Source: an uncultured Candidatus Peribacteria bacterium (lineage in GTDB: Bacteria > Patescibacteriota > Gracilibacteria > UM-FILTER-43-11). Taken from it: DNA of 64,000 nt. Where the stretch lies: contig CAYWJA010000004.1 of NCBI GenBank assembly GCA_964458485.1, forward strand, positions 2,231-66,230. Reading direction: 5' to 3'. Each line of letters starts with the position of its first letter. The stretch's first letter is position 1. Position numbers and translations under genes: made by a program. This document shows, in pieces, positions 16,566-59,408 of this stretch. The notes beneath the pieces were generated by a model. The model worked only from the letters and a program-made list of their open reading frames with translations, was not told where the DNA came from and did not search any database.

Positions 16566-16688
16566 GTTACCAAATAGTTTCCTGGCCTTCGGCTCACTAA
16601 GTTCGCTCAGGCCGTTTCCAAATAGTTACCAAATGGTTTACTGTCTGGAAACAATATGGAAACAATATGGAAACAATATGGAAACAAT
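16566..16688 (+). promoter_or_regulatory. Conserved repeat-built leader, copy B (upstream of the prepilin peptidase gene)
   Basis: gttaccaaatagtttcc, a GC hairpin, the core gtttccaaatagttaccaaatggtttact (16614-16642), then atggaaacaat x4 (16645-16688) ending at the ATG. Confidence 0.6.
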
Positions 16689-34787: not shown

Positions 34788-36725
34788 ATGCCAAAACAAA
34801 AAAAAGTAACAAAATCCAAAGTTCTTAACAGAGAAACCACAGTCGTTTTAATGGAAGAGAAAAAATGGTACAAGCCATCTACAAAAGTCATTAAAAAAGC
34901 TATAATCAAAGACTGGAAAAAAGTCCACGCTGCAGCCAAACGTAACCCGATCAAATATTGGGAAGAGGCAGCGCGTGAACTGGAATGGTATAGGGAATGG
35001 AAAATTCCTTTTAAAGAAGCTAAAAAGAATTTTTTCCAATGGTTCTTAGGCGCCAAATGCAACATCGTCCACAATTGTCTGGATCGCCATATGGGAACTC
35101 CAACAGAAAAAAGGACAGCAATTATTTGGGAAAATGACAAAGGCGACCATTGTAAAATGACCTACAAAGAGCTCAATAAATCTGTTTGCAAAATGGCCAA
35201 TGGTCTTAAATCTCTCGGCGTTAGAAAGGGCGACGTAGTCGCGATTTATATTCAAAATACTCCGGAAGCAGCCATTTCTATGTTGGCTTGTGCAAAAATT
35301 GGCGCAGTCCACTCCGTCGTTTATGCCGGCTTTTCTGCACATGCCTTAAAAGATCGAATTGATGATGGGAAAGCAAAGGTTTTAATAACATCCGATGTCG
35401 GCTACCGTGCTGGCAAAACAATCGACATGTATTCTTTGTGTGCAGATGCTGTTAAAGGTTCAAAAACCATCAAAAAAATGATTGTAGTTAAGCGTAAGCC
35501 ATCCAGTAAAAAGAAAAATAAACGCCGGGATGTCTGGTTTGGTGAATTAATGCGCAAGCAGTCTGCAAAATGTGAAACAGAAGTAATGAGTTCGGAAGAT
35601 CCTCTGTTTATTTTGTATACATCCGGCACTACATCAAAACCAAAAGGCGTGGTTCATGTGCATGGCGGTTATATGGTTGGTGTTAATCGGACATTCAGAT
35701 GGGTAATGGACGTAAAAGATGATGATATTTATTGGTGCACTGCGGATCCCGGATGGATAACTGGTCATAGTTATATAGTCTACGCACCTTTGATGTCCGG
35801 CATTACTACTTTAATGTTTGAAGGTGCACCAAATTACCCAAAGCCGGATAAATTATGGCGTGTTGTTAAAAAACACAAAGTCACAATTTTTTATACTGCC
35901 CCAACCCTCATACGCGCACTTATGGGCTATGGTGACAAGTGGGTTAAAAAACACAATATGCCATCACTCCGATTACTCGGATCAGTCGGCGAACCTATTA
36001 ATCCGGAGGCGTGGCGGTGGTATTGGAAAGTTGTAGGAAGAAAAAAATGCCCCATCATGGATACCTGGTGGCAAACTGAGACTGGCATGTTTATAATTAC
36101 CCCCCTTCCATCTATGCCACTCAAGGCTGGCTCTGCCACATTACCATTTCCGGGGATAATCGCTGATGTCGTTGACAAAAAGGGCAAATCCGTCAAAGTT
36201 GGCGAAGGCGGTTATTTGATTATTAAAAACCAATGGCCATCTATGCTGCGTACAGTATTTAAAAACCCAAAACGTTACATCGAAACATACTGGAAGGACG
36301 TTCCTGGTTCATATTTTACAGGGGATCTAGCCCGTAAAGACAAAGACGGATATTTTTGGGTACAAGGAAGGTGCGATGATGTCCTTTCCATTGCCGGCCA
36401 TCGTATTAGTAATGCTGAAATTGAGAGTGCAATTGTATCCCATAAAGCAGCCGCCGAAGCCGCAGTTATTGGCAAACCACATCCTGTAAAAGGTGAATCT
36501 GCAAAGGCTTTTGTAATACTAAAAAGGGGCATAAAACCATCTGATAAATTAATTGTGGAACTCAAAAAACAAATCCGCAAAGAGCTCGGTCCAATTGCTG
36601 TTACGGATGAAATTGAATTCGTTAAAAAATTACCAAAAACCCGTAGCGGTAAAATCATGAGGCGAGTTCTAAAAGCAAAAGAGCTTGGCAAGGAGTTGGG
36701 TGACACTAGCGCGTTGGCGGATTAA
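34788..36725 (+). CDS. acs: Acetyl-CoA synthetase (AMP-forming)
   Basis: AMP-binding motif (ILYTSGTTSKPKG), full-length Acs-like layout and the C-terminal PKTRSGKIMRR. The ATG at 34788 is preferred because the track start at 34674 reads through the palindrome. Confidence 0.95.
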   Translation: MPKQKKVTKSKVLNRETTVVLMEEKKWYKPSTKVIKKAIIKDWKKVHAAAKRNPIKYWEEAARELEWYREWKIPFKEAKKNFFQWFLGAKCNIVHNCLDRHMGTPTEKRTAIIWENDKGDHCKMTYKELNKSVCKMANGLKSLGVRKGDVVAIYIQNTPEAAISMLACAKIGAVHSVVYAGFSAHALKDRIDDGKAKVLITSDVGYRAGKTIDMYSLCADAVKGSKTIKKMIVVKRKPSSKKKNKRRDVWFGELMRKQSAKCETEVMSSEDPLFILYTSGTTSKPKGVVHVHGGYMVGVNRTFRWVMDVKDDDIYWCTADPGWITGHSYIVYAPLMSGITTLMFEGAPNYPKPDKLWRVVKKHKVTIFYTAPTLIRALMGYGDKWVKKHNMPSLRLLGSVGEPINPEAWRWYWKVVGRKKCPIMDTWWQTETGMFIITPLPSMPLKAGSATLPFPGIIADVVDKKGKSVKVGEGGYLIIKNQWPSMLRTVFKNPKRYIETYWKDVPGSYFTGDLARKDKDGYFWVQGRCDDVLSIAGHRISNAEIESAIVSHKAAAEAAVIGKPHPVKGESAKAFVILKRGIKPSDKLIVELKKQIRKELGPIAVTDEIEFVKKLPKTRSGKIMRRVLKAKELGKELGDTSALAD

Positions 36726-37402
36726 TCTCGTGTTAGTCTTTTTACTGCCTCATCAATCATTCTCTGTCTGGTGGGCTCATCAAATGATTCATCTGCCGAG
36801 AGTTCTTTATCCTCCTGCATCTGCCTTAGATCCTCTTCCAATCCCTCCAAACCTCTTTCTCTAAGAATTGTTGTTGCCTCTCTAAAATCTTTAGGTATAT
36901 CATTCCAATTTTCCGCTATTTTATCACATAGGGCAAGAGCTCTCATGGCCTGTTCTTCACTCAAACAATATTGTTCTACTGCGAATAAGATGTCGGCCAT
37001 AACCCCAATTTCATTAAAATCACCTCCATTATTTTTAAGTTGTCTATATTTTTGTTCCATCTGTGCACGGAATTTAGCACCAACGTTTTCCAGTGCCTGT
37101 AGAAAATGAATATTGCACATAACATCCATAATCCCCAATACCGAGCCACCATATTGCTGGTCAATATCAGTTCCCTCAGGTACGTGTTCGAAAAAAGCAT
37201 CTATCATCGTATCCATTTGGTCTGATGGCATGGGTGGTTGTAATTTTGCAAATAGATTAGAAATATCCGATCTAATTTCTGTAGCTATCAGTTTTTCATC
37301 ATTCTTATGGTATCCAGAGACTTCAGAAAAACAATATTTGCCCATTAAAGCATCTGCAAAGCTTTCCTCAGTCCATTTTGGTTGTTTTTGTATCGTAGAC
37401 AT
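36722..37402 (-). CDS. Hypothetical acidic protein
   Basis: 226 aa with an ATG start. Its stop overlaps the acs stop. No domain recognised. Confidence 0.55.
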   Translation of the reverse strand: MSTIQKQPKWTEESFADALMGKYCFSEVSGYHKNDEKLIATEIRSDISNLFAKLQPPMPSDQMDTMIDAFFEHVPEGTDIDQQYGGSVLGIMDVMCNIHFLQALENVGAKFRAQMEQKYRQLKNNGGDFNEIGVMADILFAVEQYCLSEEQAMRALALCDKIAENWNDIPKDFREATTILRERGLEGLEEDLRQMQEDKELSADESFDEPTRQRMIDEAVKRLTRD

Positions 37403-37513
37403 TTTATATATAAATTATTAAATAAATTTGGCAATAACTATAACATATTTTTAAAAAAATAGCAAGCATAAAAAATTAACTCGATTTAACACGAAAATAC
37501 TTTTTATCAAAGG

Positions 37514-37555
37514 CTTGGTAAAGAATTAGGCGATACTAGCGCTCTTGCTGACTAG
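37514..37555 (+). pseudogene. Orphan copy of the last 13 codons plus stop of an acs-type gene
   Basis: It translates to LGKELGDTSALAD*, identical to the acs C-terminus (36684-36725). Ten of the 13 sense codons differ, all synonymously. No upstream reading frame continues it. Confidence 0.6.
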
Positions 37556-38009
37556 TTTTATCTATATTATCCAATGCTCCATTTACCATCTTTTCAATCA
37601 CAGGTCGTATTTTTTCAACAAATTCTTCGACATCCTCCGGAGGCATATTTTTTTCACTGTGGCATGTGACACATAATCCTATCGTAGAGTATATAGATTC
37701 TTTTGCATCCTCCAGTACACCAGTAGTAATGGTACCCCTAGATATAACTTTGCCAACCTTAGAATGGGCATGTGTACATTCAGCATCACTTCTTATTTGT
37801 AGAATTAATTGTTTTAGATCTGCCTCTTTATCCATTAGTGCTTTTGCTACACAATCCACTTCTTCCCACTCCGTTCCACGTACTGGCGTTTCTCCAAAGA
37901 TTCCAGACTTAGAAACCACAGCAGGTGGCCACTTAACATCAAAGCTTATAATAGAACCATCCTCATTTGAAACATCTATTTCTATATCTCTTTCTGCAGC
38001 TTCAGACAT
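37536..38009 (-). CDS. Hypothetical acidic protein
   Basis: 157 aa with an ATG start. Its last six codons overlap the acs-tail relic. No domain recognised. Confidence 0.5.
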   Translation of the reverse strand: MSEAAERDIEIDVSNEDGSIISFDVKWPPAVVSKSGIFGETPVRGTEWEEVDCVAKALMDKEADLKQLILQIRSDAECTHAHSKVGKVISRGTITTGVLEDAKESIYSTIGLCVTCHSEKNMPPEDVEEFVEKIRPVIEKMVNGALDNIDKTSQQER

Positions 38010-38068
38010 AATTTTATTTGTTAAAGGAGGTTAATATAAATGCTCATTTATTTTTAGTCAATTAAAAA

Positions 38069-38130
38069 GCTAATTCGTAATTCGTCTCTCGCCCGCCCGG
38101 ATGACCGGGTCGGACGGGTAATTCGTAATT
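38069..38130. repeat. Word array / GC hairpin / word array composite downstream of lysS
   Basis: gctaattcgtaattcgt, then ctctcgcccgcccggatgaccgggtcggacggg, then taattcgtaatt. The direct repeat taattcgtaatt flanks the GC insert. Confidence 0.85.
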
Positions 38131-38135
38131 AAAAA

Positions 38136-40286
38136 TTATAGCCCAATTTCGTCAGATATTTCTTTCATTGCTTCAAGAGCTATTTCAAAGAATTCACCAA
38201 GCTCCAATCCACATTTCTCAACTTCGCGGATAACATCACGATTTACCTTGGCGGCAAAAGACTTGTCTTTAAATTTCTTTTTAATAGATTTGACCTTAGC
38301 ACCTTCAAGTTTTTTGTCCGGGCGCATTAGGGCATATGCGAATATTAACCCCGTAACAGTTTCGCCTGCAGCAAGTGCATGTTGAAATTTGGTAGTACGT
38401 TCTTTGTCTTTATATTCAGGAATTTCATCCATTCCATATCCGTGTGATGCGATAACCTCAATGAGTTCATCCGAAACACCTGCATTTTTTAAAATTTCGA
38501 CAGATTTTACACAATGATTTTCAACATCTTCACATGTTTCCTCCCAATCAATGTCATGCAAAAGTCCAGCAATACCCCAAACTTCCTCATCTTCACCAAG
38601 TCGTTTTGCAAGAGCGCGCATTACAACTTCTGATTCGCGGCAGTGATTACGATTCATTGGATCTTTGATGTGTTTATCAAACAATTCTTTTGCCTGTTCA
38701 TAAGTTATGCCGGCGGTTATGTTTTCGTTGTTGTTTTCGGGACGCAGGTCTGCGCCCCCTACAGGATGGTCCGATACCTTCCCACCCTTCGGTCTCATCA
38801 ACGGAAACATAACAACGTCACGCAAATTATCCTGTTGGGTTAAAAGAGTTACAAGGCGGTCGATACCCATCCCCCATCCACTCATTGGTGGCATACCATG
38901 TTCCATAGCTTCCAAATATTCTTCATTCATACTCATTGCTTCTTCATCCCCGCCAGCCTTTGCCTTTGCCTGCCCCTCCAGCCTTTTCCTTTGGTCTGCC
39001 GGGTCAACAAGTTCGCTATATGCATTTATAACTTCCCATGTGTTTACTAAGAGCTGGAATGTATCGCATACTTTGTCACTTTCATCATTTCTTCTCGCAA
39101 GCGGTTTTGTGTCTGCTGGATGATGGATTACAAAACACGGCTGAATCAATTTTGGTCTACTTACCTTTTTGTATAAATGATCAACCAAATTTCCATAACC
39201 CATATTTTCAGCATCTTCTATTTCTATTTCTTTTTCTTTTATAGCTTTTAAAAGATCTTTTTCGTTGTCATATTCCAGAATATCGATTCCGCAGTCTTCT
39301 TTTATCATTTCCCGATAATCCCTGCGTGGCCATGGAGTTTTAAAATCAATTTCAGCCTCTTTGCCTTCCTGATCTTTAATCATAACTTTCGTTGTGCCCA
39401 TTACCTCTTTCATCAAATATTCAAACATTTCTTCGGTAAACTTCATATTATCTTCAAAGTTCCAATATGCAGCATAGTGCTCGATCATTGTAAACTCTTG
39501 TAAGTGGCTTGGGTCCATGCCTTCGTTACGGAAACATCTTGCAACTTCAAAAGTTTTTTCAAAACCACCCACAACCGCTGTTTTTTGCCACAACTCCCCT
39601 GCTGCTATGCGTAAATAAACATCAATATCCAATGCATTATGATGTGTCGAGAAAGGTTTAGCCGCAGCACCGGATGAAATATTTTCAAGAACAGGCGTTT
39701 CAATTTCAGTAAACCCCTTACTCCAATAAAATTCACGTAATTTACGAACGACTTTTGATCGGAATTCAAATCGCGCACGCGCTTCTTTGCTCATCACCAA
39801 ATCAAGATGCCTTTGGCGATATTTTGTTTCTTGGTCTTGAAGCCCGTGCCATTTTTCTGGCAATGGACGGATCGCTTTACCCAAAAAAACCAAATCACTA
39901 ACCAGCAAAGTTGTTTCACCATGTTTGGTTTTAAAAAGCTCACCAGTTACACCAATAAAATCCCCAATGTCCAAAAGTTTCATGAGTTTTTCCTGTTTTT
40001 CATCCAAAACACCTTTCATCAGGCAGATTTGGATTTTACCTTTATCATCTTGAAGATGTGCGAAATTAAGTTTCCCAAAATCACGAAAAGACATCATTCG
40101 TCCACATAACGTGACATCATTTTTATTGTCTTTTTGAATTTCTTCAACGTCGCGTAATTTTTCTTGGCCAAGCTTCAATGCCTCATCAGAATAATGCGTA
40201 CGTTCAAACCGTGCTGGGTAGGGGTTGATACCAAGTGCACGAATTTTTTCGATCTTATCAAATCTTTCTTTTGATATTCTATCCAT
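38136..40286 (-). CDS. lysS: Lysyl-tRNA synthetase (class II) fused to a C-terminal HD-domain hydrolase
   Basis: Residues 1 to ~500 are a complete LysRS ending ...RDVVMFPLMRP. A ~20-aa linker encoded by a palindromic repeat follows, then ~195 aa with HD-superfamily motifs (LLHDIDWE, ASHGYG). Confidence 0.9.
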   Translation of the reverse strand: MDRISKERFDKIEKIRALGINPYPARFERTHYSDEALKLGQEKLRDVEEIQKDNKNDVTLCGRMMSFRDFGKLNFAHLQDDKGKIQICLMKGVLDEKQEKLMKLLDIGDFIGVTGELFKTKHGETTLLVSDLVFLGKAIRPLPEKWHGLQDQETKYRQRHLDLVMSKEARARFEFRSKVVRKLREFYWSKGFTEIETPVLENISSGAAAKPFSTHHNALDIDVYLRIAAGELWQKTAVVGGFEKTFEVARCFRNEGMDPSHLQEFTMIEHYAAYWNFEDNMKFTEEMFEYLMKEVMGTTKVMIKDQEGKEAEIDFKTPWPRRDYREMIKEDCGIDILEYDNEKDLLKAIKEKEIEIEDAENMGYGNLVDHLYKKVSRPKLIQPCFVIHHPADTKPLARRNDESDKVCDTFQLLVNTWEVINAYSELVDPADQRKRLEGQAKAKAGGDEEAMSMNEEYLEAMEHGMPPMSGWGMGIDRLVTLLTQQDNLRDVVMFPLMRPKGGKVSDHPVGGADLRPENNNENITAGITYEQAKELFDKHIKDPMNRNHCRESEVVMRALAKRLGEDEEVWGIAGLLHDIDWEETCEDVENHCVKSVEILKNAGVSDELIEVIASHGYGMDEIPEYKDKERTTKFQHALAAGETVTGLIFAYALMRPDKKLEGAKVKSIKKKFKDKSFAAKVNRDVIREVEKCGLELGEFFEIALEAMKEISDEIGL
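38739..38762. repeat. 28-nt palindrome family, copy 3, inside the lysS-HD linker
   Basis: The reverse complement of gggacgcaggtctgcgccccctac matches copy 1 (34722-34749) with one mismatch over 24 nt. It encodes VGGADLRP. Confidence 0.85.
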
Positions 40287-40317
40287 ATTAAATAATTAAT
40301 ATTTAAAAAACATTTAT

Positions 40318-40352
40318 CATTGTTAATTGTTAAATGTTAAATGTCAAATGTG
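40318..40352. repeat. Word array (t)gttaa(a)t x4-5 upstream of lysS
   Basis: cattgttaattgttaaatgttaaatgtcaaatgtg. Related aaatg(c/t)(c/t)aaat words occur at 52995-53025 and 59350-59380. Confidence 0.75.
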
Positions 40353-40400
40353 TATGAGTATTGTAGCGGAAATAATTTAATTTTTAAATCCAATACTTCA

Positions 40401-40706
40401 TTAACCAGCTGATGCAACAGCTATTACAGCTTCATCAGGTACGATTATATATTTTTTATATTCGCGTGTTAGTGCAGCCACTACTTCTTTGCGTACTCCC
40501 CGCATACTACCGTGTAATAATTCATATATATGATTCTTTTTGTCGGTCATAAGGAGGATGCTAACACGAGTGGGGTGTTTTTCTAATTCCGCGACAGCCT
40601 TACGTCTAGCTTCAATAAAATCGTCACTTGTATCGTGAAACTCATAACCACCACCCCAACCATATGCAACCACTTCAAATCTTTTGCCAAAATAATCTTT
40701 AGCCAT
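40401..40706 (-). CDS. Hypothetical protein (101 aa)
   Basis: Open frame with an ATG start. No domain recognised. Confidence 0.5.
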   Translation of the reverse strand: MAKDYFGKRFEVVAYGWGGGYEFHDTSDDFIEARRKAVAELEKHPTRVSILLMTDKKNHIYELLHGSMRGVRKEVVAALTREYKKYIIVPDEAVIAVASAG

Positions 40707-40767
40707 AATTTGTTTTTTTAAGGCAGTGTATTTTGTGTCATATAATTAGGAATGTCAAGTATCAATC

Positions 40768-41457
40768 ATTAGAAACTAAAGTGGTGAAGCGGTGTATACG
40801 CGAAGCTTCAGCCACCCTCCTCAGTCTACTTCATGAACTTACCGAGAAGATATAAAGGGAGGATTGATATCAGGCTATATCTGTCCGCGCCGAGGCCGGG
40901 AAGGTTCTCACAGGCCAATTCTGGCGGGAACTTGCCGCCGACAGCCTCAGGCGTCACGCAGAGCTTGGGTTTGCGCCCATCGACCTCCAGCCTGACACCG
41001 TTCTCTACCTGATAGATCTTGTCCCCTACCTTTTTGAGGGTGATCTTGGAGGTTGAGAGCCTTATCTGACCATTCGCCATAGCCTCGAGTGCCGAAGGTG
41101 TGAAGACATCGACCTTCACCTTGTCGTTGAATCCCGACATCGCTCCGTTGGGAATGTGGAATTCGTACTTCGACGCAATCTTCATGAAAGCATCTACGAA
41201 CTCTTCCTCCGTGAGCGTCTTCATGGGCTTTGCTTTCGGCTTCTTCACCGCCACTGCCCTTGGGCTGGGCGTGGGTTCGGGGTTTTTTGATACCGTTATC
41301 ACTGCGGGCTGGGGCTCCTGCACCTGCACCTGGGGCGCAGCACAGGAAGCCATCAGCATCGTGATGATGAGTAATCTTTTCATCTGTTTGTTACCTTTTC
41401 TTTCCGGGCACAAGGCCCGTAGTATGCGTATACACCGCTTCCACTTTAATCTCTAAT
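40768..41457. mobile_element. GC-rich cassette bounded by imperfect inverted repeats (no transposase)
   Basis: The left end attagaaactaaagtggtgaagcggtgtatacgc (40768-40801) is inverted relative to the right end gcgtatacaccgcttccactttaatctctaat (41426-41457). The 22/23-nt core differs by one indel. Interior lines count 40/60 (40921-40980) and 38/60 (41221-41280) G+C, against 21/60 in a neighbouring coding line. Confidence 0.5.
40826..41383 (-). CDS. Lipoprotein of unknown function, foreign (high-GC) codon usage
   Basis: MKRLLIITMLMASCAAPQ gives a signal peptide and lipobox Cys. A Pro-rich linker and a ~130-aa domain follow. The ATG at 41383 is preferred over the track start. Confidence 0.65.
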   Translation of the reverse strand: MKRLLIITMLMASCAAPQVQVQEPQPAVITVSKNPEPTPSPRAVAVKKPKAKPMKTLTEEEFVDAFMKIASKYEFHIPNGAMSGFNDKVKVDVFTPSALEAMANGQIRLSTSKITLKKVGDKIYQVENGVRLEVDGRKPKLCVTPEAVGGKFPPELACENLPGLGADRYSLISILPLYLLGKFMK

Positions 41458-41506
41458 TTAAAGAACAGATTGTAGAGTGTTATATTAAGTAATAATCTTA
41501 TTTATG

Positions 41507-41533
41507 TCAAAAAGTGTTGTCGAAATCGACAAC
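41507..41533 (-). terminator. Candidate intrinsic terminator downstream of the PFK gene
   Basis: The minus strand reads gttgtcgatttcgacaac (8-bp perfect stem), then ac and ttttt. It lies 57 nt after the stop codon. Confidence 0.45.
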
Positions 41534-41589
41534 ATCCTTGATTTTATTAAATATAGCAAATTCGTAATAGTAATAAAAACGATATTGTG

Positions 41590-42816
41590 TCAGTCCGTTG
41601 CCAAAATTTTCTCTAAATCATAATCCTCCGGATGTGGCACAATTTTGCCTATTTCTTTATAATTTTCCGGCTTTACATAATGCAAATTGGAAAAAGCTAA
41701 TTTATAATCCTGAGCATCCACATCTACAAGTCTTGTTTTGATTTTGCCGGTTTTTCTATCTTCAATGTCTCTTAGATATAATGGCGAAATTTCTCCATTA
41801 GCTTTTGCTATCACAATACAGCCTGTGCGTCCTTCATCATACAGCTTTTTAACCCCCATACCCAGCATGGTGCAGTAATTCATATCAAAGGCAATAGGGC
41901 TGCAAGCACGTGTTTCATAGCCTAGTTCAACAGGGCGGCTTTTAACCTTTATTCCTATCTCTTTTAATTTTTTCTGTAATAGTACGTTAAAGATATGCGA
42001 TTTAGACACTGTTCCAAGCTCGGGATGGCCATGTTCATCGAATGTAAGATTAATTCCGCAATTAGCAATTTCTGAATCACTCATAAAATGGAAGACTCCT
42101 TCACTTATAATTATGGCGCCATGATCTAGCCCATACATCTTTCGTTTTAAAATCGAAGAAATCATCATATGAATGATTTTGTCGAAAGTGATTTTTTTGC
42201 CCTTAAACATTTCTGGAATAATTACCATTGGGTAATGACATGCTGTGCCTATACCAAAGGCAAGATGTCCTGCCTCTCTGCCCATAGCTGCAACCACAAA
42301 CCAATTTCCACTACTTCTGGCATCCTCATAAATAGTTTGTGCTATACGAGACCCCTCATTTTTTGCTGTTTCATAACCGAATGTAGGCAACCTATCCGGA
42401 AGTGGTAAATCATTATCAATTGTTTTTGGAACATGAATATTTTGAATATCTACTTTTTGCGTTTTTAAATATTTTGTCAGCCGATTGGCCGTTGAAGCAG
42501 TATCGTCACCACCTATTGTAACTAAAAGTTTTACATTATTTTTAGTAAAAAATTCCGTACTGAATTCAGAATCTTTAGGTTTATAACGGCTCATAGTAAG
42601 AACACTGCCTCCTCTATCATAAATATAATCTGCAAGCTCAAAATCAAATTCAACGATTTTTGGTTTACCGGAAAAAATTGTCTTGGTGCCTTCGTTTAGC
42701 CCAATAACCCGCCATCCTTCATTTAAAAAAGATTTAGCAAGAGAGCTGATTACGGAATTGATCCCTGCGGCTGGTCCACCGCTACATAAAATTGCGACTG
42801 TGTTTTTTTCTTTCAT
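41590..42816 (-). CDS. pfp: Phosphofructokinase, pyrophosphate-dependent type
   Basis: PFK-A family. GGDDT (Asp where ATP-PFKs have Gly) and PKTIDND (Lys where ATP-PFKs have Gly) are the classical PPi-specificity residues. Confidence 0.85.
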   Translation of the reverse strand: MKEKNTVAILCSGGPAAGINSVISSLAKSFLNEGWRVIGLNEGTKTIFSGKPKIVEFDFELADYIYDRGGSVLTMSRYKPKDSEFSTEFFTKNNVKLLVTIGGDDTASTANRLTKYLKTQKVDIQNIHVPKTIDNDLPLPDRLPTFGYETAKNEGSRIAQTIYEDARSSGNWFVVAAMGREAGHLAFGIGTACHYPMVIIPEMFKGKKITFDKIIHMMISSILKRKMYGLDHGAIIISEGVFHFMSDSEIANCGINLTFDEHGHPELGTVSKSHIFNVLLQKKLKEIGIKVKSRPVELGYETRACSPIAFDMNYCTMLGMGVKKLYDEGRTGCIVIAKANGEISPLYLRDIEDRKTGKIKTRLVDVDAQDYKLAFSNLHYVKPENYKEIGKIVPHPEDYDLEKILATD

Positions 42817-42822
42817 GATTTC

Positions 42823-42893
42823 GGGTTGTGGCTAGGGTTGTGGATAGGGTTGTGGCTACCATTCTAGCCACTATTCTAGCCACCACTCGACCA
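42823..42893. repeat. Opposed word arrays gggttgtggcta x3 / attctagccac x2
   Basis: The 12-mers at 42823, 42835 and 42847 are followed by ccattctagccac tattctagccac cactcgaccact. gtggctag and ctagccac are complementary. Confidence 0.85.
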
Positions 42894-43904
42894 CTATTCG
42901 TTAATTGATTTAGATAAAAGCTCCATCATATCCACAAGCCTACAAGCATACCCCCACTCATTATCGTACCAGGTAATTAGCTTAACATAGCGGTCATCCA
43001 AAACCTTAGTTAATTGTGTGTCTATAATGCTGGAATGGGGATTGGTCTTGAAGTCAATTGATACCAATGGATCATCGCAGTAGTCAATAATAGGTTCATA
43101 GTATTCTTCTCTGCATTTTTTCCTAAAAAAATCATTAAGCTCATCTTCGCTTACACTATTTTCCAGATGAAGTACAATATCGCAAACTGAACTAGTCGCT
43201 ATTGGTACTCTGTAAGCCATACCATCTAACTTTCCCTTTAGTGCAGGAATTATTTTTGCAGTAGCCTTAATAGCACCAGTAGTTGTTGGGATTACAGACT
43301 GAACAGCACTGCGGCATCGACGCAAATCTCTGCCAGAATTATCTAGAAGATTCTGAGAATGTGTAAATGAATGAATGGAAGAAACAGAGGCATTTAAAAT
43401 ACCCCATTTTTCATGCACTAGTTTAATAGGCGGAGCAATACAGTTGGTCGTACAACTTGCATTAGAAATTACTTTATATTCTGATTTTAAATCTTTTTCA
43501 TTTACCCCAATAACGAAAGTTGGTGTGTCATCTTTCATTGGTGCAGAAACGAGAACTTTTTTTACACCACCTTCCAGATGTCGGCTGGCTATGTCGTAAG
43601 TTTTTGCTTTACCGGTACACTCCAAGACAATATCCACATCATAATCGCTCCATGGAATTTCACGTGCGTCTTTGATTGCAAAACAATGTACATTTTTACC
43701 ATCCACTAGAATCCCTTCACCATTTTTCTTAACTTCATTTTTAATATTGCCATGCAGAGAGTCATATTTTAAAAGATGTGCCCGCATTTTTCTGTCTTCT
43801 GACCTAGCATTAATTGCAACCACTTCCATATCTGGACGGTTTAGGAGTATGCGATGGACAATACGTCCGATTCGGCCGTAGCCGTTTAGGCCTACTTTGA
43901 TCAT
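42894..43904 (-). CDS. gap: Glyceraldehyde-3-phosphate dehydrogenase, type I (copy 2)
   Basis: 336 aa with NGYGRIGR and SNASCTTNCIAP. It is clearly diverged from the copy at 6959-7963. Confidence 0.9.
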   Translation of the reverse strand: MIKVGLNGYGRIGRIVHRILLNRPDMEVVAINARSEDRKMRAHLLKYDSLHGNIKNEVKKNGEGILVDGKNVHCFAIKDAREIPWSDYDVDIVLECTGKAKTYDIASRHLEGGVKKVLVSAPMKDDTPTFVIGVNEKDLKSEYKVISNASCTTNCIAPPIKLVHEKWGILNASVSSIHSFTHSQNLLDNSGRDLRRCRSAVQSVIPTTTGAIKATAKIIPALKGKLDGMAYRVPIATSSVCDIVLHLENSVSEDELNDFFRKKCREEYYEPIIDYCDDPLVSIDFKTNPHSSIIDTQLTKVLDDRYVKLITWYDNEWGYACRLVDMMELLSKSINE

Positions 43905-43934
43905 GTTTTAGAGGATTAAATTATATTTTTTACA

Positions 43935-44012
43935 AGTGCTGTCGTCCTTTCGTCCTTTAGTGCTTTCGTCCTAAAATAGGAGAGCACGACAGGACGATAG
44001 CACGATAGCACT
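43935..44012. repeat. Imperfect long hairpin made of 8-nt words (tcgtcctt / agtgct versus aggacga / agcac)
   Basis: The left arm agtgctgtcgtcctttcgtcctttagtgctttcgtcct faces the right arm aggagagcacgacaggacgatagcacgatagcact across the loop aaaat. Confidence 0.8.
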
Positions 44013-44047
44013 AAGGCACTTATAAAAAGTGTTAGTGCAGCAACAAG

Positions 44048-44980
44048 CTAAGACAATGTATTTACGTTACCTAATACGTCAAGCTTATGCATCACCATAT
44101 CCTGAATAGCAGTTCTTGCAGGCCCTAAGTACTTGCGTGGATCGAAATTAGAAGGATTGTCCTTTAGTGCCTTTCGGATAGTGCCGGTAAGAGCAAGTCT
44201 TAAGTCTGTATCAATATTCACTTTGCAAACTCCCATTTTGGCAGCCTTGCTGATCATATCTTCTGGTACACCTTTTGCACCTGGGATATCGCCACCATAT
44301 TGATTACAGAGTTCTACAAATTCAGGAATTACAGTCGATGCCCCATGTAACACAAGTGGATACCCATCAGGTAATTTACTGCTAATTGTTTCGAGCCTTT
44401 CAAAATCTAACTGAGGATCCCCTGTAAATTTAAAAGCGCCATGACTGGTCCCGATCGCAATAGCTAATGAATCTACACCAGTTTTTTCTACGAACTCAGC
44501 TGCTTGATCCGGATCTGTATAAGAGCCTTCTCCTGCAGCAACCTTTACATCATCTTCAACACCCTCCAGTTTACCGAGCTCTGCCTCAACAACTACACCA
44601 TGTTCATGGGCATAGTCGACGACCTGTTTGGTAAGCGCTATATTTCCTTCAAAATCATGATGTGAGCCATCTATCATTACAGATGTAAACCCGCCATCTA
44701 CACATTGTTTACATATTTCAAAATCCGCCCCATGATCTAAATGCATTGCAATTGGAATTTCCGGACATTCCTCTACAGCAGCTTCGATCAACTTACGTAA
44801 ATAAATCGGATTTGCATAATTACGAGCTCCTTTAGAAACCTGTAAAATTACAGCACATTTCTTATCCGCCACTCCGGCTATAATGCCCTGTATAAGCTCC
44901 ATATTATTTACATTAAAAGCACCGATGGCATAACCGCCCTCGCATGCTTTTTTGAACATTTCAGTTGTTGTTACTAGCAT
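44048..44980 (-). CDS. fba: Fructose-bisphosphate aldolase, class II
   Basis: 310 aa. GAFNVNN, HLDHG and the overall class-II FBA layout are present. Confidence 0.95.
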   Translation of the reverse strand: MLVTTTEMFKKACEGGYAIGAFNVNNMELIQGIIAGVADKKCAVILQVSKGARNYANPIYLRKLIEAAVEECPEIPIAMHLDHGADFEICKQCVDGGFTSVMIDGSHHDFEGNIALTKQVVDYAHEHGVVVEAELGKLEGVEDDVKVAAGEGSYTDPDQAAEFVEKTGVDSLAIAIGTSHGAFKFTGDPQLDFERLETISSKLPDGYPLVLHGASTVIPEFVELCNQYGGDIPGAKGVPEDMISKAAKMGVCKVNIDTDLRLALTGTIRKALKDNPSNFDPRKYLGPARTAIQDMVMHKLDVLGNVNTLS

Positions 44981-45074
44981 AATCGTAATTTTAAATTTTA
45001 AGTTTTCAATTTTAAATTACAAAACCCACCACAAAATTAAAATTTGTTATTTATAATTTAAAATTTGTAATTTA

Positions 45075-46127
45075 TCAAAGATTCATTTTTGGTTGATCAT
45101 CATTTACTTCTTCTTTTTTTTCTTCAGGTTTTGCCTCTTCTGCAGGTTCCTCCTCCTTTTTTTCCTCAACAGGAGCTGCTTCAGGTGTAGGAGTTTCCTC
45201 AGTTTTCGGCTCCTCAGCAGGTTCTGCTGGCTTCTCCTCAGCGACAGGTTCCTCTTCCTTCTTTTCTTCTTCAGCCGGTGTTTCCTCTGCCTTTGGCTCT
45301 TCAGTCGGAGTCTCAGCCGGGGCTGTTTCCTCGGCAGGCTTCTCTTCTGCAGGAGCTTCAGCTGGTTTTTCTTCAGCTGGCGGAGCTTCTTCAGTCTTTG
45401 GCTCTTCAGCGGGAGGCTCAGCAGGAGCTTCAGGGGCAGGAGTTTCTTCTATAGGTTTTTCTTCCTCCTTCGGTTCCTCGGCTGATGCAGCAGGTTTTTC
45501 CTCAGCCGGTGGGGTCTCTTCAGCAGGTTTTTCCTCCACCTTTTCAGCAGAAGGAGTTTTTTCTGCTGGCTCCTTATCCTTATCAAAATCAACTTTTACA
45601 TTTTCCTTTTCTTCTTCTTTCTCTATTTCAAAAAATTCTTCAGGCATAAATTTGGCCACTTGAGCTACAAATTTTGCAGGAATTTGTTGGACTTTAGTAT
45701 TGTAATCCTTAACAACGCTATTATAAAAACGGCGTGCTGATTGTATCTTGTCTTCAGTATCAACTAGCTCATTTTGTAATTGTAAGAAATTTTCATTAGC
45801 CTTTAGATCAGGGTAGTTTTCCGCTACCGCAAATAAGGATTTTAAAGCGCCAGCAAGCATATTTTCTGCAGACCCCTGATCCTTAATATTGGTTGCGTTA
45901 ATAGCGTTAGCCCTTGCCTCTGTTACCTTTGTGAATACTTGATCTTCATGAGACGCATAGCCTTTTACAGACTCAACTAAATTTGGTATTAAATTATACC
46001 TGCGCTTTAATTGAACATCTATGTCAGCCCAGGCTTCTTTGACCTGGTTGCGCATTTTTACCATACCGTTGTATGTCCAAAATATATACACAAAAATAGC
46101 TAGTATAATTGCAATGAATAGTGCCAT
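45075..46127 (-). CDS. lemA: LemA family protein with ~170-aa Glu/Pro/Ala/Lys-rich C-terminal tail
   Basis: An N-terminal TM helix and LemA domain (YNGMVKMRNQVKEAWADIDVQLKRRYNLIPNLV) are followed by EEKPAEE-type repeats. Confidence 0.85.
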   Translation of the reverse strand: MALFIAIILAIFVYIFWTYNGMVKMRNQVKEAWADIDVQLKRRYNLIPNLVESVKGYASHEDQVFTKVTEARANAINATNIKDQGSAENMLAGALKSLFAVAENYPDLKANENFLQLQNELVDTEDKIQSARRFYNSVVKDYNTKVQQIPAKFVAQVAKFMPEEFFEIEKEEEKENVKVDFDKDKEPAEKTPSAEKVEEKPAEETPPAEEKPAASAEEPKEEEKPIEETPAPEAPAEPPAEEPKTEEAPPAEEKPAEAPAEEKPAEETAPAETPTEEPKAEETPAEEEKKEEEPVAEEKPAEPAEEPKTEETPTPEAAPVEEKKEEEPAEEAKPEEKKEEVNDDQPKMNL

Positions 46128-48709: not shown

Positions 48710-48737
48710 GTAGGGGACGCAGATCTGCGTCCCCTAC
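48710..48737. repeat. 28-nt palindrome family, copy 2 (upstream of the epimerase gene)
   Basis: gtaggggacgcagatctgcgtcccctac is a perfect 28-nt palindrome. It begins 27 nt beyond the epimerase ATG (minus strand). Confidence 0.9.
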
Positions 48738-49595: not shown

Positions 49596-50660
49596 ATGTT
49601 TTTCAAAAAAAAGAAACCACGTCGGCTTTATTACCCTGCTAAATCCAAATGGTATACACGTCCGCGTAGACGTAAACCTTCCGTTAGGCGTTCAAATAAA
49701 TTATTAAAAAATAGTCTTGGAGGTATTAATAAGGTTCTTAAAAGATTGCCCTACCTCATAGCAGTAGCCGTTGGCCTTTTCCTTTTGGTAATTTCATTAA
49801 TATTTTCTTCATATTTTGCAATCAAAAATATTCAAGTAGTAAGAGAAAACCTTACAATAAATAGTGCAGCTATTGAGAATAAATTAAATAAATATATTGG
49901 AAAAAACATTGTTTTTTTCCCAAGAAGTAAGATTTTTACAACTATTCAAAAAGAATTTCCGGAATTTTCTTCAGTTAAAGTTGGCAAAACTCTCCCGTCT
50001 ACAATAAAAATTCAATTAAAAAGTCATCCTATAGTAGCTAACCTCCGGGCATATCATATTCCTGTTGTGGAAGAAGTTACAAAAGAACAAACAGAGTTTA
50101 ATAAGGCGGTAACAGATTTATTGAATCCACAGGCAACAAAAGAACCCATCCAAAAGGAAAACAAACTTAATACAAAACAGCCTAGTGGTATTTTTGATTT
50201 AACAAAAACAAAGGAGGACGCGAAACCAAAATCAATAGAGCAAAAATCCCTTTTAAATAGTATTGGGCAAGCCATTTTTGATCGCGAAGAAAGCTTGGAG
50301 TATATAACAATTATCATTCGCAATCTACAGATGCCAGTTAAAGATCGAGAGCAAGTGATAAAAAAAAGTCATATGAATTATGTGCTTGATGCGATCAAAT
50401 ATTTTAAGAATACTATGAAATTAGAGGTAGTTGGGGCAGAATATTTAGGGATAGCACGGGAAGTTCACTTGAAAACCAAAAAGAATTTGGTAGTCTGGAT
50501 TAGTATTGAACATGATTATAAAATACAAATAGATAAATTACATACAATATATGAAGCGGCAGAGCTCAATAAAGAAAATTTGAGTTATATTGATTTGCGC
50601 ATTCGTAATAAATTAATTTATTGCCCTCGTGGATTGCGTTGCTCTGTCCTATCCAAGTAG
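49596..50660 (+). CDS. FtsQ/DivIB-like cell-division protein (POTRA-containing)
   Basis: A basic N-terminus and single TM helix are followed by FAIKNIQVVRENLTINSAAIENKLNKYIGKNIVFF...LPSTIKIQLKSH, resembling the FtsQ POTRA domain. The gene neighbours cell-wall genes. Confidence 0.6.
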   Translation: MFFKKKKPRRLYYPAKSKWYTRPRRRKPSVRRSNKLLKNSLGGINKVLKRLPYLIAVAVGLFLLVISLIFSSYFAIKNIQVVRENLTINSAAIENKLNKYIGKNIVFFPRSKIFTTIQKEFPEFSSVKVGKTLPSTIKIQLKSHPIVANLRAYHIPVVEEVTKEQTEFNKAVTDLLNPQATKEPIQKENKLNTKQPSGIFDLTKTKEDAKPKSIEQKSLLNSIGQAIFDREESLEYITIIIRNLQMPVKDREQVIKKSHMNYVLDAIKYFKNTMKLEVVGAEYLGIAREVHLKTKKNLVVWISIEHDYKIQIDKLHTIYEAAELNKENLSYIDLRIRNKLIYCPRGLRCSVLSK

Positions 50661-50662
50661 TT

Positions 50663-50755
50663 ACCAGCTCGCTCCGCTCGCGTTTCCAAATAGTTGCCAA
50701 GTTGCTTACTTGCCACAACAATCTGGTAACAATCTGGTAACAATCTGGTAACAAT
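50663..50755 (+). promoter_or_regulatory. Conserved repeat-built leader, copy C (upstream of the DD-carboxypeptidase gene)
   Basis: accagctcgctccgctcgcgtt matches the reverse complement of the cysS 22-mer at 19/22. The core gtttccaaatagttgccaagttgcttact (50682-50710) follows, then ctggtaacaat x3 (50723-50755) ending at the ATG. Confidence 0.6.
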
Positions 50756-51652
50756 ATGTTAAGAAGCCTAATAAGCCTACTACTCATCGCCGGTATAAAT
50801 ACAGCCCCTATGCAAACAGCTTCAACAGCTGATCAATTTAATATGGAAACACTTTTAGGGGTACAGGCCATACCAATGGCAAAAAGCACATCATCCCAGA
50901 TACAGAGTGACGCAAGAGCAGTGCTTTTAATGGATGCTGGGACAGGAATAGTATTGTATGAAAAAAATGGTTATCAGAGCATGCCAATGGCTAGTCTTAC
51001 GAAAATAATGACTGCGATTTTAATTTTAGAGTCCCACAAGCTTAATGAAGTTGTAACAATATCAGATAACTATGCCAGTATGCCGGAAGGTCAGATAGGC
51101 GTAAGGATATGGCTGCGCAAATATGAAAAAATTACAGTTGAGAACCTGCTAATAGGCTTGCTAGTCCGATCTGGAGGAGATGCTGCATTAGCATTGGCAA
51201 AACATCATAGCGGATCAACAGACGCATTTGTTAAAGAGATGAACACAAGGGCTAAGATACTCAATCTGCAGAATACTAATTTTACAAATCCAATTGGTCT
51301 GGATCATAAAAATCATTATGCGAGTGCATATGATCTATCGATTCTTACAAAATATGCACTGCACAATCCAGCCTTTCGACGCATTGTTAAGATGCCAAGC
51401 GCATCTATTTCATCCACGGATGGTAAAATAACGCATAAATTTGAAGGTACAAATTACCTTCTGTATAACAATGATGGACTGGATATCCAGGGTGTAAAGA
51501 CAGGTACAACTCTTGCGGCCGGTCAATGCCTGATTAATTTGGTGCGTGACGATAATGGGAAGGAGGTCATTGTTGTTGTCTTGGATAGTAAGGCTAGATT
51601 TACCGAAAGTAAGTATCTTATTAAGTGGGTATTAAATAATTTTATTTGGTAA
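50756..51652 (+). CDS. D-alanyl-D-alanine carboxypeptidase (S11, PBP5-like)
   Basis: Signal peptide, SxxK (ASLTK), the SGGDAA region and KTGT. Confidence 0.9.
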   Translation: MLRSLISLLLIAGINTAPMQTASTADQFNMETLLGVQAIPMAKSTSSQIQSDARAVLLMDAGTGIVLYEKNGYQSMPMASLTKIMTAILILESHKLNEVVTISDNYASMPEGQIGVRIWLRKYEKITVENLLIGLLVRSGGDAALALAKHHSGSTDAFVKEMNTRAKILNLQNTNFTNPIGLDHKNHYASAYDLSILTKYALHNPAFRRIVKMPSASISSTDGKITHKFEGTNYLLYNNDGLDIQGVKTGTTLAAGQCLINLVRDDNGKEVIVVVLDSKARFTESKYLIKWVLNNFIW

Positions 51653-59273: not shown

Positions 59274-59284
59274 AATATAATTTC

Positions 59285-59310
59285 GCATTTCGCATTTCTG
59301 ATTTCGCATT
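59285..59310. repeat. Left arm of a perfect 26-nt inverted repeat in the ilvD-ilvB spacer
   Basis: gcatttcgcatttctgatttcgcatt; its exact reverse complement lies at 59383-59408. Confidence 0.9.
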
Positions 59311-59382
59311 GTCATGTACCATTTTGCAATTAGCAATTACTAATTAATTAGTTAAATGCCAAATGAGTGAATGCCAATTGTG

Positions 59383-59408
59383 AATGCGAAATCAGAAATG
59401 CGAAATGC
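59383..59408. repeat. Right arm of the perfect 26-nt inverted repeat
   Basis: aatgcgaaatcagaaatgcgaaatgc. It overlaps the first base of the ilvD stop codon, and 22 nt recur at 12794-12815. Confidence 0.9.

Follow-up and report, generated by a model that had tools for sequence, protein, structure and literature searches.

A synonymously recoded second copy of the acs 3' end in a Candidatus Peregrinibacteria genome, a plausible scar of 3'-end displacement

In a window of 64,000 nt (the whole stretch of DNA analysed here), the acetate-CoA ligase gene acs is followed by a second copy of its own last 13 codons and stop, which spells the same peptide in largely different codons. We regard this copy, hereafter the relic, as a recombination scar, in which the resident 3' end of acs was displaced by DNA from a diverged relative, and we put the probability of this reading at roughly 55%. 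The argument rests on the character of the divergence between the two ends, on the single small gene that separates them, on the overlap of the relic with a neighbouring gene, and on further acs tails found in series in a related lineage. The features discussed are collected in Table 1.

Table 1. Features of the acs-lysS interval and its borders (window positions)
Feature	Position	Strand	Remarks
acs, acetate-CoA ligase	34788..36725	+	645 aa from ATG 34788; Pfam ACAS_N, AMP-binding, AMP-binding_C
Functional acs tail, 13 codons + TAA	36684..36725	+	GC3-rich; candidate donor-derived tail
ORF226, putative cargo gene	36722..37402	-	convergent with acs; stops overlap by 4 nt (TTAA)
AT-rich spacer, right-hand end of putative inserted unit	37403..37513	-	GC 0.171; ORF226 promoter-like site
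Relic (candidate displaced acs tail), 13 codons + TAG	37514..37555	+	untranslatable in acs frame
ORF157, lineage-specific	37536..38009	-	last six codons (TSQQER) + stop within relic
Strong hairpin, TAATTCGTAATT repeats on both sides, then U-run	38060..38135	-	direct-repeat family D9
lysS-HD, class II lysyl-tRNA synthetase + HD domain	38136..40286	-	Pfam tRNA-synt_2, tRNA_anti-codon, HD; syntenic with relatives' lysS

Results

Two acs ends that differ only at synonymous sites

The acs product is 77-86% identical to other Peregrinibacteria Acs proteins, all of which, among those compared, end in ...LGxxLGDTSALAD*. A longer acs ORF (683 aa, from 34674) reads through an upstream palindrome, and its start is probably not the one in use. 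The final ~75 nt of the gene are strongly conserved at the protein level in the Peregrinibacteria clade, the final 26 aa score about 60 bits against the Acs tail profile in all lineages, and the exact tail peptide LGKELGDTSALAD was found in several of them (P0005, P0007, P0049).

The functional end reads CTT GGC AAG GAG TTG GGT GAC ACT AGC GCG TTG GCG GAT TAA, and the relic CTT GGT AAA GAA TTA GGC GAT ACT AGC GCT CTT GCT GAC TAG; both translate as LGKELGDTSALAD*, and the letters, coordinates and shared peptide are as an earlier note on this DNA, made from the letters alone, had described them. The copies agree at 30/42 nt (71%) with an identical run of 8 nt at most. That note's codon count was also reproduced: 10 of the 13 sense codons differ, all synonymously, as does the stop codon, three codons are the same, and no residue is changed. 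All 11 substitutions in sense codons are synonymous, whereas not one of 200,000 randomly drawn sets of 11 substitutions was so throughout (p < 5e-6), and a degenerate back-translation pattern of the tail matched exactly two sites, the two copies themselves, with 0 expected from 100 shuffles. Neutral drift would not yield such purely synonymous divergence, which implies that each copy has a past as the end of a working acs and that the two came together only recently. Since the share of common codons (3/13) is at or below the level seen against the closest relatives, one copy must have come from another lineage.

When matched to a profile of Acs C-termini, the relic reaches 23.2 bits, for a background of at most 8.7 bits. 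Its frame is shut upstream by a TAA at 37487-37489 with no in-frame start codon between this stop and the relic, in agreement with the earlier claim that nothing upstream continues the frame. Once two GAPDH paralogues and two matches involving tandem or dispersed repeats had been set aside, the acs tail copy was the only stray terminal fragment in a survey that covered both ends of the proteins of 50 window genes. The same acs-ORF226-relic arrangement was recovered in nine contigs assembled independently from several JGI and ENA samples, and both junctions are spanned by Logan contigs; the arrangement is therefore not an assembly artefact. The back-translation pattern gave 0 matches in the metagenome and viral contig collections, a negative of little weight, since the metagenome set evidently lacks the window's own contigs.

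The repeated end might also be an in-situ tandem duplication that later drifted, or a match due to chance or artefact, and a tandem copy of an acs end does occur in L077 (Acidobacteriota), over ~126 nt and at the nucleotide level. The L077 copies, however, are nearly identical in DNA, whereas those of the window differ by synonymous changes throughout and are separated by 830 nt of unrelated DNA. With the shuffles, the synonymous test and the nine assemblies all against it, this account is effectively refuted. Two other candidates were also dropped: a riboregulator or terminator role for the tail copies, because RNA folding of the relic and of the acs tail, on both strands, gave no structure beyond that of shuffles; and the antisense peptide ALVSPNSLPS, identical in both copies, which is a by-product of coinciding wobble positions.

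One small gene between the copies, and another ending inside the relic

The copies are separated by 788 nt (830 nt for the unit with one tail) containing a single ORF, ORF226. The earlier note had called it an orphan and the only ORF of this stretch; it is the only one, but an exhaustive HMMER search found seven relatives, i.e. P0124 at 38% identity and the distant P0125-P0130 at about 25%, so that it is not a strict orphan. The motif PxGTD[IL]D..YG is conserved in this family. A word-based homologue search with ORF226 returned only the self-match and an identical 132-aa fragment, and a related-locus search with the two closest family members found nothing. Structure prediction gives a confident all-alpha fold (pLDDT 85.6), the model had no match to the PDB below E = 0.2, there was no Pfam match, and the product is non-enzymatic-looking. 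A promoter-like site for ORF226 (TTGCTA-17-TATAGT for -35/-10, with an upstream TG) is present at 37465-37437 on the minus strand. None of the metatranscriptomes searched for the region contain it.

ORF157, on the far side, terminates inside the relic, as the earlier note had it; its end is encoded opposite the last 20 nt of the relic (37536-37555), and a promoter-like site lies at 38061-38033. A search of 5.8 billion proteins returned only the self-match, ORF157 was not found in viral contigs, and its structure model is poor (pLDDT 40). Neither ORF226 nor ORF157 matched in PADLOC, and in PHROGs the two gave two matches only, at E of about 0.02-0.03 and thus above the 0.001 default, the one for ORF226 (E 0.022) being to a family of unknown function. 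By their codon usage, both genes look typical of the window and give no sign of foreign origin.

Neither the 830-nt unit nor the DNA up to about 8 kb away encodes an integrase, excisionase or transposase, no recombinase domain was found in the genes called on L001 (window 28033-45185), and no inverted repeats bracket 36726-37513. Insertion of a transposon, IS or MITE was rejected on this lack of inverted repeats and on the flanking direct repeat, which is 42 nt long with 74% identity.

A variable slot between acs and lysS

The host of the window is a marine member of Candidatus Peregrinibacteria (CPR). In at least eight related lineages the flanks are syntenic, with an NTP-transferase, lactamase_B, an fn3 protein and acs on one side and lysS, PFK and GAPDH on the other, and the contents of the slot between acs and lysS are different in every lineage and unrelated. 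The slot is filled with unrelated ORFs in the window, L093, L096, L097, L098, L101 and L102 (in L098, GIY-YIG endonuclease genes stand beside lysS), and it is empty in L099 and L100, L099 having acs, 120 nt and lysS. No toxin, immunity or defence family matches were found among the slot cargoes. The interval is a slot of accessory-gene turnover, akin to a minimal mobile element. Its right border is marked by the hairpin next to lysS-HD in Table 1, which is the probable terminator of that gene (MFE -26.5 kcal/mol, z = -3.9, with 0/200 shuffles equally stable). The accessory genes of the slot include ankyrin- and LRR-type genes, which look like host-interaction factors.

The comparison of acs with its flank in relatives, which the earlier note had proposed as a check, came out in favour of a variable slot with an empty state in L099; a pre-insertion join of acs to ORF157 was not found.

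Serial relics in L101

In L101, whose acs is 77% identical to that of the window, two more acs tails lie in series downstream of acs on the same strand, with lengths of ~18 and ~23 codons and scores of 23.6 and 13.5 bits against the Acs C-terminus profile (noise at most 8.7). Same-strand 3' fragments downstream of an intact acs gene were found, in total, once in the window and twice in L101. The L101 tails are recoded relative to each other. The middle relic is decayed by G-to-A changes and indels, and the outer one adjoins lysS, a core gene, and has become the C-terminal end of ORF188. Serial displacement would be expected to leave such a pattern. The left edges of the relics vary (13, ~18 and ~23 codons in the window and L101), and the 8-nt run common to the window tails is missing from the L101 tails; differing edges and the lack of a shared identical core fit illegitimate joins.

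These edges also bear on the suggestion of the earlier note that an element inserted into the 3' end of acs, bringing a replacement tail that displaced the original. A site-specific element of the type of e14 or phage 21 in icd, or a cassette mobilised in trans, would carry such a tail in its att site. The geometry is indeed that of e14 in icd, where a metabolic gene likewise keeps its frame through a supplied 3' end and the original end lies at the far side of the insert, and displacement recurs at acs in two lineages. However, e14, a prophage of 15 kb, encodes an integrase and an excisionase of its own (intE, xisE) and has a site-specific att, whereas the window insert amounts to one small ORF with no mobility gene nearby and no terminal inverted repeats. 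In E. coli K-12, e14 supplies the last 165 nt of icd, and these are identical at 153 positions (93%) to the displaced icdC, with nine synonymous and two non-synonymous codon differences and a 29-nt identical run, against 71% and 8 nt for the window tails. The acs relics vary in length from event to event, each cargo is a single gene with no relation to the others, and on the contig of the closest ORF226 homologue there is no acs tail within 200 nt. We consider such an element very improbable; of the earlier suggestion, the outline of displacement is favoured by the variable slot and the serial relics of L101, and the element, having no integrase, no terminal inverted repeats, no identical att core and no constant relic length, is not supported.

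The other possibility raised by the earlier note was that the relic is the last remnant of a second acs homologue. A complete xenologous paralogue would once have stood between ORF226 and ORF157 and then been lost by deletion, save for the stretch that the overlap with ORF157 protected. Synonymous-only divergence does require that the relic once belonged to a working acs, and the protected overlap would explain why the very end survived; yet no tandem pair of intact acs genes was found at about 100 loci, about 14 from Peregrinibacteria included, L101 would require three acs genes, the deletion must have ended only 22 nt beyond the protected overlap, and in three separate relics, and there is no more acs-like sequence upstream of the relic. 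This account is less economical than displacement, and we give it little credence.

The resident tail

The GC3 of the functional tail is 0.69, which ranks it among the 11 highest values for the 633 thirteen-codon windows in acs (top 1.7%), and that of the relic is 0.23 and genome-typical, a contrast that we count in favour of the relic as the resident tail. In a codon identity table of 13 tails, the functional tail is nearest to that of L090 (35/39 nt, 9/13 codons) and the relic to that of L101 (33/39 nt). The window acs and the nearest relatives known share about 0.5 of third positions at 86% amino acid identity. No breakpoint within acs upstream of the tail, compositional or phylogenetic, is visible, which speaks against the proposed displacement. 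The tests for a native tail (GC3, sliding-window identity and the codon table against 13 tails) are each weak or non-significant.

L090 is the closest relative of the acs body as well as of the functional tail, which gives that tail a native look, in a signal that is not significant.

The direction of displacement might accordingly be read the other way round. ORF157 would then be the newcomer, anchored on the lysS side and derived from a relative with overlapping acs and ORF157 genes, a foreign 42-nt acs tail would have hitch-hiked as the left end of the fragment, and the functional tail and ORF226 would be resident. The relic is physically bound to ORF157 by their 20-nt overlap, the nearest matches of the two tails suit this direction, and lysS-HD is a mosaic, its HD domain being 84% identical to that of L096 and 67% to that of L101, so that recombination does occur on the lysS side. 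Against this, no known relic of the three exceeds a short tail (13-23 codons), where a donor fragment ending at random could have stopped anywhere in acs, the outermost relic of L101 stands beside the core gene lysS, as expected of a resident tail pushed outwards, it is the functional tail that is atypical in GC3, and, with multiple comparisons taken into account, the similarities in codons are not significant. We judge this reversed direction possible but unlikely.

Discussion

Displacement of a resident acs end could have proceeded as follows. DNA from a relative whose synonymous sites had diverged to saturation, comprising that relative's acs end, the convergent ORF226 with its 4-nt stop overlap, and the ORF226 promoter region, would have entered the cell and paired by homology with the resident acs. 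Its non-homologous far end would then have been joined illegitimately within the resident tail, 42 nt before the stop, as in homology-facilitated illegitimate recombination (HFIR), equivalent here to 'C-terminal displacement'. The product would be an intact acs with the incoming tail, followed by ORF226 and the old tail. At the right junction, a microhomology of only about 6 nt (GCTTGG) is common to the left edges of both copies. We infer the direction (i.e., which tail was resident), the HFIR mechanism and the route of DNA entry. A pre-insertion genome, with an acs ending in the relic-type codons CTTGGTAAAGAATTAGGCGATACTAGCGCTCTTGCTGACTAG and overlapping ORF157, was not found, nor was an empty-site joint in the contigs of four DNA runs over 36300-38100 (depth about 4x).

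On this model the resident ORF157 would have overlapped the resident acs by 20 nt before the insertion, and the old tail would persist because ORF157 has its last six codons and its stop there; when two overlapping genes are both to be kept intact, an insertion between them must duplicate the overlap. With 71% identity and a longest identical run of 8 nt, the two tails are poor substrates for deletion by recombination between repeats, which should make the insertion stable.

HFIR is described for naturally transformable bacteria (de Vries & Wackernagel 2002, Prudhomme et al. 2002 and Meier & Wackernagel 2003, all as cited in PMC5361080; also PMC3240628). The event proposed for acs would share with it a one-sided anchor (the acs 3' region), an illegitimate far join and the capture of foreign DNA; consistent with such an anchor, acs is conserved, and ORF226 and ORF157 are absent from the slot of every relative. 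The acs case differs in that its mechanism is read from sequence and its parental sequences were not found, and we assume that the join fell inside the anchor, part of which the product would then duplicate.

A model of C-terminal displacement has been published for rhs tips (Jackson et al. 2009, PMC2935791), and HFIR has been invoked for the T6SS effector-immunity modules of V. cholerae, where the effector 3' end is 'shifted back' (Kirchberger et al. 2017, PMC5361080). In rhs, cdiA and T6SS loci, as in the window, a conserved upstream part is shared, a new 3' end arrives with a neighbour gene and no mobility gene, and the old 3' end remains downstream as an orphan fragment, repeated events producing a series as in L101. 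The mechanism proposed for those loci is HFIR or recombination within the conserved part. The rhs, CDI and T6SS tips, however, code for distinct toxins, each with its cognate immunity gene, and so alter the protein, whereas the window tails encode an identical 13-aa end; acs is a housekeeping gene, its relics are only 13-23 codons long, and its product is unchanged. The acs scar is a by-product of gaining a neighbouring gene.

The minimal mobile elements of Neisseria are slots between two conserved genes that hold different cassettes (PMC3082526, PMC3787668). The acs-lysS slot resembles them in its unrelated, lineage-specific cassettes, its empty state and its lack of associated mobility genes. 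Cassette exchange in minimal mobile elements is attributed to homologous recombination in the two flanks, which leaves no scar, whereas the acs-lysS slot appears to have at least one illegitimate junction and retains a duplicated gene end, and the lineages compared here are far more diverged (acs 77-86% aa).

A more far-reaching possibility, which we hold to be quite improbable, is that the acs 3' end is a dedicated landing pad in Peregrinibacteria, at which single-gene cassettes, some of them for secreted ankyrin- or LRR-type proteins, would arrive with a recoded acs tail. Trans-acting machinery or an undescribed form of targeted recombination, integron-like without an adjacent integrase, may then be at work, and displaced tails may occasionally be recruited as C-termini (ORF188 of L101, ORF157 of the window).

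The acs scar reveals no new molecular machine. CPR bacteria are uncultivated, so gene gain in them is readable only from scars of this kind. A displaced end that differs at synonymous sites alone is direct sequence evidence of recombination between lineages saturated at silent sites, and the end of a conserved housekeeping gene can serve as a homology anchor for accessory-gene capture. The case also illustrates a rule, that a gene cannot be inserted between overlapping convergent genes without the overlap being duplicated. It further shows how a displaced tail can be taken over as the C-terminal end of a different gene. Matches to a C-terminus profile just downstream of an intact gene are searchable, and would let such events be counted across genomes.

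The duplicated end of acs

Both 42-nt stretches read exactly as first noted: the second, displaced copy (the relic) encodes the same 13 residues and a stop as the functional tail of acs, with 10 sense codons and the stop codon differing and no amino-acid change, and its frame is not continued upstream, where a TAA closes it at a distance of 27 nt. Only 30 of 42 bases and 3 of 13 codons are identical between the two. A degenerate pattern of the peptide matches these two acs-tail sites and no others (none expected from shuffles), and in simulation random sets of 11 substitutions were never fully synonymous (0 of 200,000). The identical arrangement of both copies is present in nine independent contigs from several samples, and both junctions of the insert are bridged by Logan contigs. 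In a search for other duplicated gene ends, which took the first and last 25 residues of each of 50 genes of the window, the acs tail was the sole stray terminal fragment, besides two repeat-derived matches and two GAPDH paralogues (terminal 25 residues 56-71% identical), of which the second sits in a PFK-GAPDH-aldolase cluster downstream of lysS.

A copy that has been non-coding from its origin is expected to accumulate replacement changes and indels. The 22 nt of the relic outside its overlap with ORF157 hold neither, and, judging from their codons, both copies must have been working acs ends for practically the whole time over which they diverged. Several lineages (P0005, P0007, P0049) have exactly this peptide, with K and E at its two variable positions, so that the lack of replacement changes across 13 mostly invariant residues is unremarkable; one antisense frame yields an identical peptide from both copies, because the wobble positions of both strands coincide in that frame. 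When the window acs is compared with its nearest known relative (86% amino-acid identity), about half of the third positions at conserved residues agree; with 3 identical codons of 13, one copy must come from a lineage at least that distant, and the two were brought together recently. In-situ duplication is exemplified by an Acidobacteriota MAG (L077), where the end of acs, as a unit of ~126 nt with a REP-like GC-rich palindrome, is repeated in tandem with near-identical nucleotide sequence; the window copies differ in being recoded. In-situ duplication, chance and artefact were excluded as origins of the second copy. A remnant of a second complete acs would be uneconomical, and we regard it as very improbable.

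Features of the window and of loci (L numbers) from related or comparison lineages
Locus	Feature	Position	Strand	Description
Window	Functional tail of acs	36684-36725	+	end of a 645-aa acetate-CoA ligase with Pfam ACAS_N, AMP-binding, AMP-binding_C
Window	ORF226	36722-37402	-	cargo gene
Window	Spacer, ORF226 to relic			111 nt, 17% GC; promoter-like site for ORF226
Window	Relic	37514-37555		second, displaced acs tail
Window	ORF157	37536-38009	-	
Window	Terminator-like hairpin	38060-38135		U-run after it on minus strand; -26.5 kcal/mol, z = -3.9
Window	lysS-HD	38136-40286	-	
Window	Palindrome-related stretch	about 38739-38762		within lysS-HD
Window	Palindromes, 28 nt	34722-34749; 48710-48737		first just upstream of acs start
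Window	Lipoprotein-like ORF	40826-41383	-	185 aa; GC 0.54, GC3 0.70
Window	GAPDH paralogues	6959-7963; 42894-43904	+; -	
Window	Short tandem repeat arrays	1470-1520; 2240-2313; 3341-3415; 12794-12832; 16645-16694; 50660-50756; 59280-59412		intergenic or at gene starts
L077	Tandem acs end	7900-8200		
L090	Convergent gene	1972-2355		
L091	Convergent gene	1993-3123		
L093	Slot			two small ORFs
L096	Slot			two LRR-like ORFs, related to that in L091
L097	Slot			an IVP gene
L098	Slot			one ORF, plus GIY-YIG endonuclease gene beside lysS
L098	GIY-YIG genes	9926-10216; 13230-13547		either side of lysS
L099/L100	Slot			empty: acs, 120 nt, lysS
L101	acs-lysS locus	2166-4191		JGI 3300031707 Ga0315291_10000481; acs (tail T2), ankyrin gene with promoter region, T1, ORF188 ending in T0, lysS-HD
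L101	Relic T1	~3320-3373		..RISQTLRDTSALAD and stop; decayed
L101	Relic T0	~3950-4012		..LKVQELDQALGDTSTLAD and stop; last ~20-23 codons and stop of ORF188 (188 aa)
L102	Slot			one ORF and an IVP gene

Genes and signals around the insert

The acs genes nearest to that of the window come from Candidatus Peregrinibacteria MAGs, and the runs containing the region are marine or seawater metagenomes. From acs, the order is ORF226, spacer, relic, ORF157, hairpin and lysS-HD; the stop of ORF226 overlaps that of acs by 4 nt, and ORF157, as had been noted, ends inside the relic, which contains its stop and final six codons. ORF226 is a genuine gene and, contrary to the earlier note, not strictly an orphan: it belongs to a small uncharacterised family (P0124-P0130, 38% and about 25% identical to it) whose proteins have about 200 aa and conserve the motif PxGTD[IL]D..YG; the window member adds a C-terminal extension of ~30 aa reaching the acs stop. 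Its predicted fold is all-alpha and confident (pLDDT 85.6), with no counterpart found in the PDB. The homologue search with ORF157 found none; it is an open frame of 157 codons with typical codon usage in a genome of 38% GC. Neither ORF matches Pfam or PADLOC, and the PHROGs matches were all below threshold (E about 0.02-0.03). The hairpin is probably the lysS-HD terminator, and is flanked by exact TAATTCGTAATT direct repeats, which are unusual.

Three unrelated convergent genes in three lineages (L090, L091 and, at 36722-36725, the window) all end with the same 4 nt overlapping the acs stop. Read antisense, ..GAT TAA or ..GAT TAG yields a TAA stop, and ACT AGC yields the stop that ORF157 uses; genes that arrive on the other strand thus find stop codons already present in the conserved acs tail.

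A gene-turnover slot between acs and lysS

In relatives with acs 77-86% identical the flanks are syntenic (NTP-transferase, lactamase_B, fn3 protein and acs on the left; HD/lysS, PFK and GAPDH on the right), and the genes between acs and lysS are different in every lineage. This interval is a slot of gene turnover, one that can also be observed empty. The two GIY-YIG genes around the L098 lysS are related (58% identical), and recombination here could be helped by such free-standing homing-type endonucleases.

LysRS is of class II and fused to HD in the window, L097 and L101; it is of class I (PF01921) in L093, L096 and L098, where HD is a separate gene, and of class I in L099 and L102, where no HD gene was called next to it. 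The window HD domain is closest to the stand-alone HD of L096 (84%), the fused domains of L101 and L097 reaching only 67% and 58%. These assignments indicate non-orthologous displacement of lysyl-tRNA synthetase at one syntenic position, and a mosaic locus. The GC-rich perfect or near-perfect palindrome GTAGGGG(G/A)CGCAGATCTGCGTCCCCTAC occurs twice in the window, and the related stretch in lysS-HD encodes 'VGGADLRP' within the linker between synthetase body and HD domain, where a repeat element may have been incorporated at the fusion point. Between lysS and PFK, the lipoprotein-like ORF has no Pfam match and a codon-usage score well beyond the range of all 48 others; it resembles a gene recently gained from a foreign source, in a second variable slot. 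Some of the tandem repeat arrays are related to one another across the window (e.g. 2240-2313, 16645-16694 and 50680-50756; 12794-12832 and 59280-59412).

Two more displaced tails in L101

All loci and the window were translated in six frames and searched with a profile of the Acs C-terminus (last 26 residues, 117 Acs proteins), noise reaching at most 8.7 bits. Besides intact acs ends, only three sites exceeded noise, namely the window relic (23.2 bits) and two in L101 (23.6 and 13.5 bits), a separate Peregrinibacteria lineage. The L101 cargo between T2 and T1 is an ankyrin-repeat protein that carries a signal peptide; its GC is 0.59, whereas the locus has 0.45. The three L101 tails are mutually recoded; T1 carries three G-to-A replacements and indels, and T0 adjoins the core gene lysS, the position of the acs end in the empty state. 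This order is the picture that would be expected from successive incoming segments, each with a new acs end, pushing the previous one outwards, and in T0 a displaced gene end is recruited by another reading frame as the C-terminus of ORF188. The L101 events are independent of that in the window, given their different relic sequences and cargoes and a window relic preserved too well to go back to a common ancestor.

Proposed direction and mechanism of displacement

We favor, with a probability of about 0.55, displacement of the resident tail (now the relic) by an incoming tail together with ORF226. GC3 is 0.23 in the relic, which is genome-typical, and 0.69 in the functional tail (top 1.7% of acs windows), a contrast that counts against the reverse direction, in which the functional tail and ORF226 were resident and which we consider rather unlikely. 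All relics are short, as is natural if an illegitimate join falls near the end of the anchor but unexpected for random left ends of lysS-anchored fragments, and the position of T0 beside lysS also favors the relic as resident; on the other side, the functional tail is most similar to that of L090, the lineage nearest in the acs body (9 of 13 codons), and the relic to the functional tail of L101 (8 of 11), neither similarity being significant allowing for 13 comparisons. No breakpoint is visible inside acs, and the codon usage of ORF226 and ORF157 is native-like.

Under displacement of the resident tail, the conserved 3' region of acs would let a fragment from a diverged relative pair with the resident gene, and an illegitimate join would link the heterologous end of the fragment to a point some tens of bases into the resident tail; we infer both how the DNA entered and this step of homology-facilitated illegitimate recombination (HFIR). 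Such anchored recombination would account for the intact acs, for the short and variable relics (13, ~18 and ~23 codons in the window and L101), and for the lack of an identical core common to the acs tails of the window and L101. It would equally account for unrelated single-gene cargoes and for the lack of an integrase in the unit or among the genes of window 28033-45185 (contig L001) and of inverted repeats bracketing the insert. ORF157 would have overlapped the resident acs by 20 nt, so that insertion of any gene between them would have to duplicate the overlap, and the relic would be the price of keeping both. As direct repeats of 71% identity with a longest identical run of 8 nt, the two tails are poor substrates for deletion, and such insertions would persist.

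An insert between recoded duplicates of a gene end is known classically from E. coli icd, with prophage e14 (and phage 21). In MG1655, as checked here, e14 starts 165 nt before the icd end, and on the other side of the prophage is the displaced pseudogene icdC. Of the 165 nt, 153 are identical in the two copies, with one run of 29 nt; 9 codons differ synonymously and 2 non-synonymously. The prophage encodes intE and xisE, whereas the window unit has no recombinase and an 8-nt run. A site-specific element of this type, including one with a recombinase acting in trans from beyond the 64-kb window, matches the geometry, but recombinase, identical core and fixed junction are all lacking and the closest ORF226 homologue has no acs tail next to it, making such an element very improbable. 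The earlier suggestion of inserted DNA carrying its own replacement tail is favored in outline, as displacement by an incoming tail, not as an e14-type integrative element. A dedicated, trans-acting cassette-acquisition system targeting the acs end we likewise consider improbable.

The same displacement model has been published for rhs C-terminal tips (PMC2935791) and for T6SS effector-immunity modules of V. cholerae, where HFIR is named explicitly and the effector 3' end is 'shifted back' (PMC5361080). The window feature works like such C-terminal displacement at polymorphic-toxin loci but is outside the toxin-tip class, as both tails encode the same peptide of a housekeeping enzyme and genes for toxin or immunity are absent. 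In its behavior the slot resembles the minimal mobile elements of Neisseria. The scar left by recombination is of a known kind and is new in its setting, a metabolic gene of uncultivated CPR bacteria, in two lineages. Rather than pointing to a new molecular machine, the acs-tail scar is evidence of inter-lineage recombination and provides a searchable signature of it.
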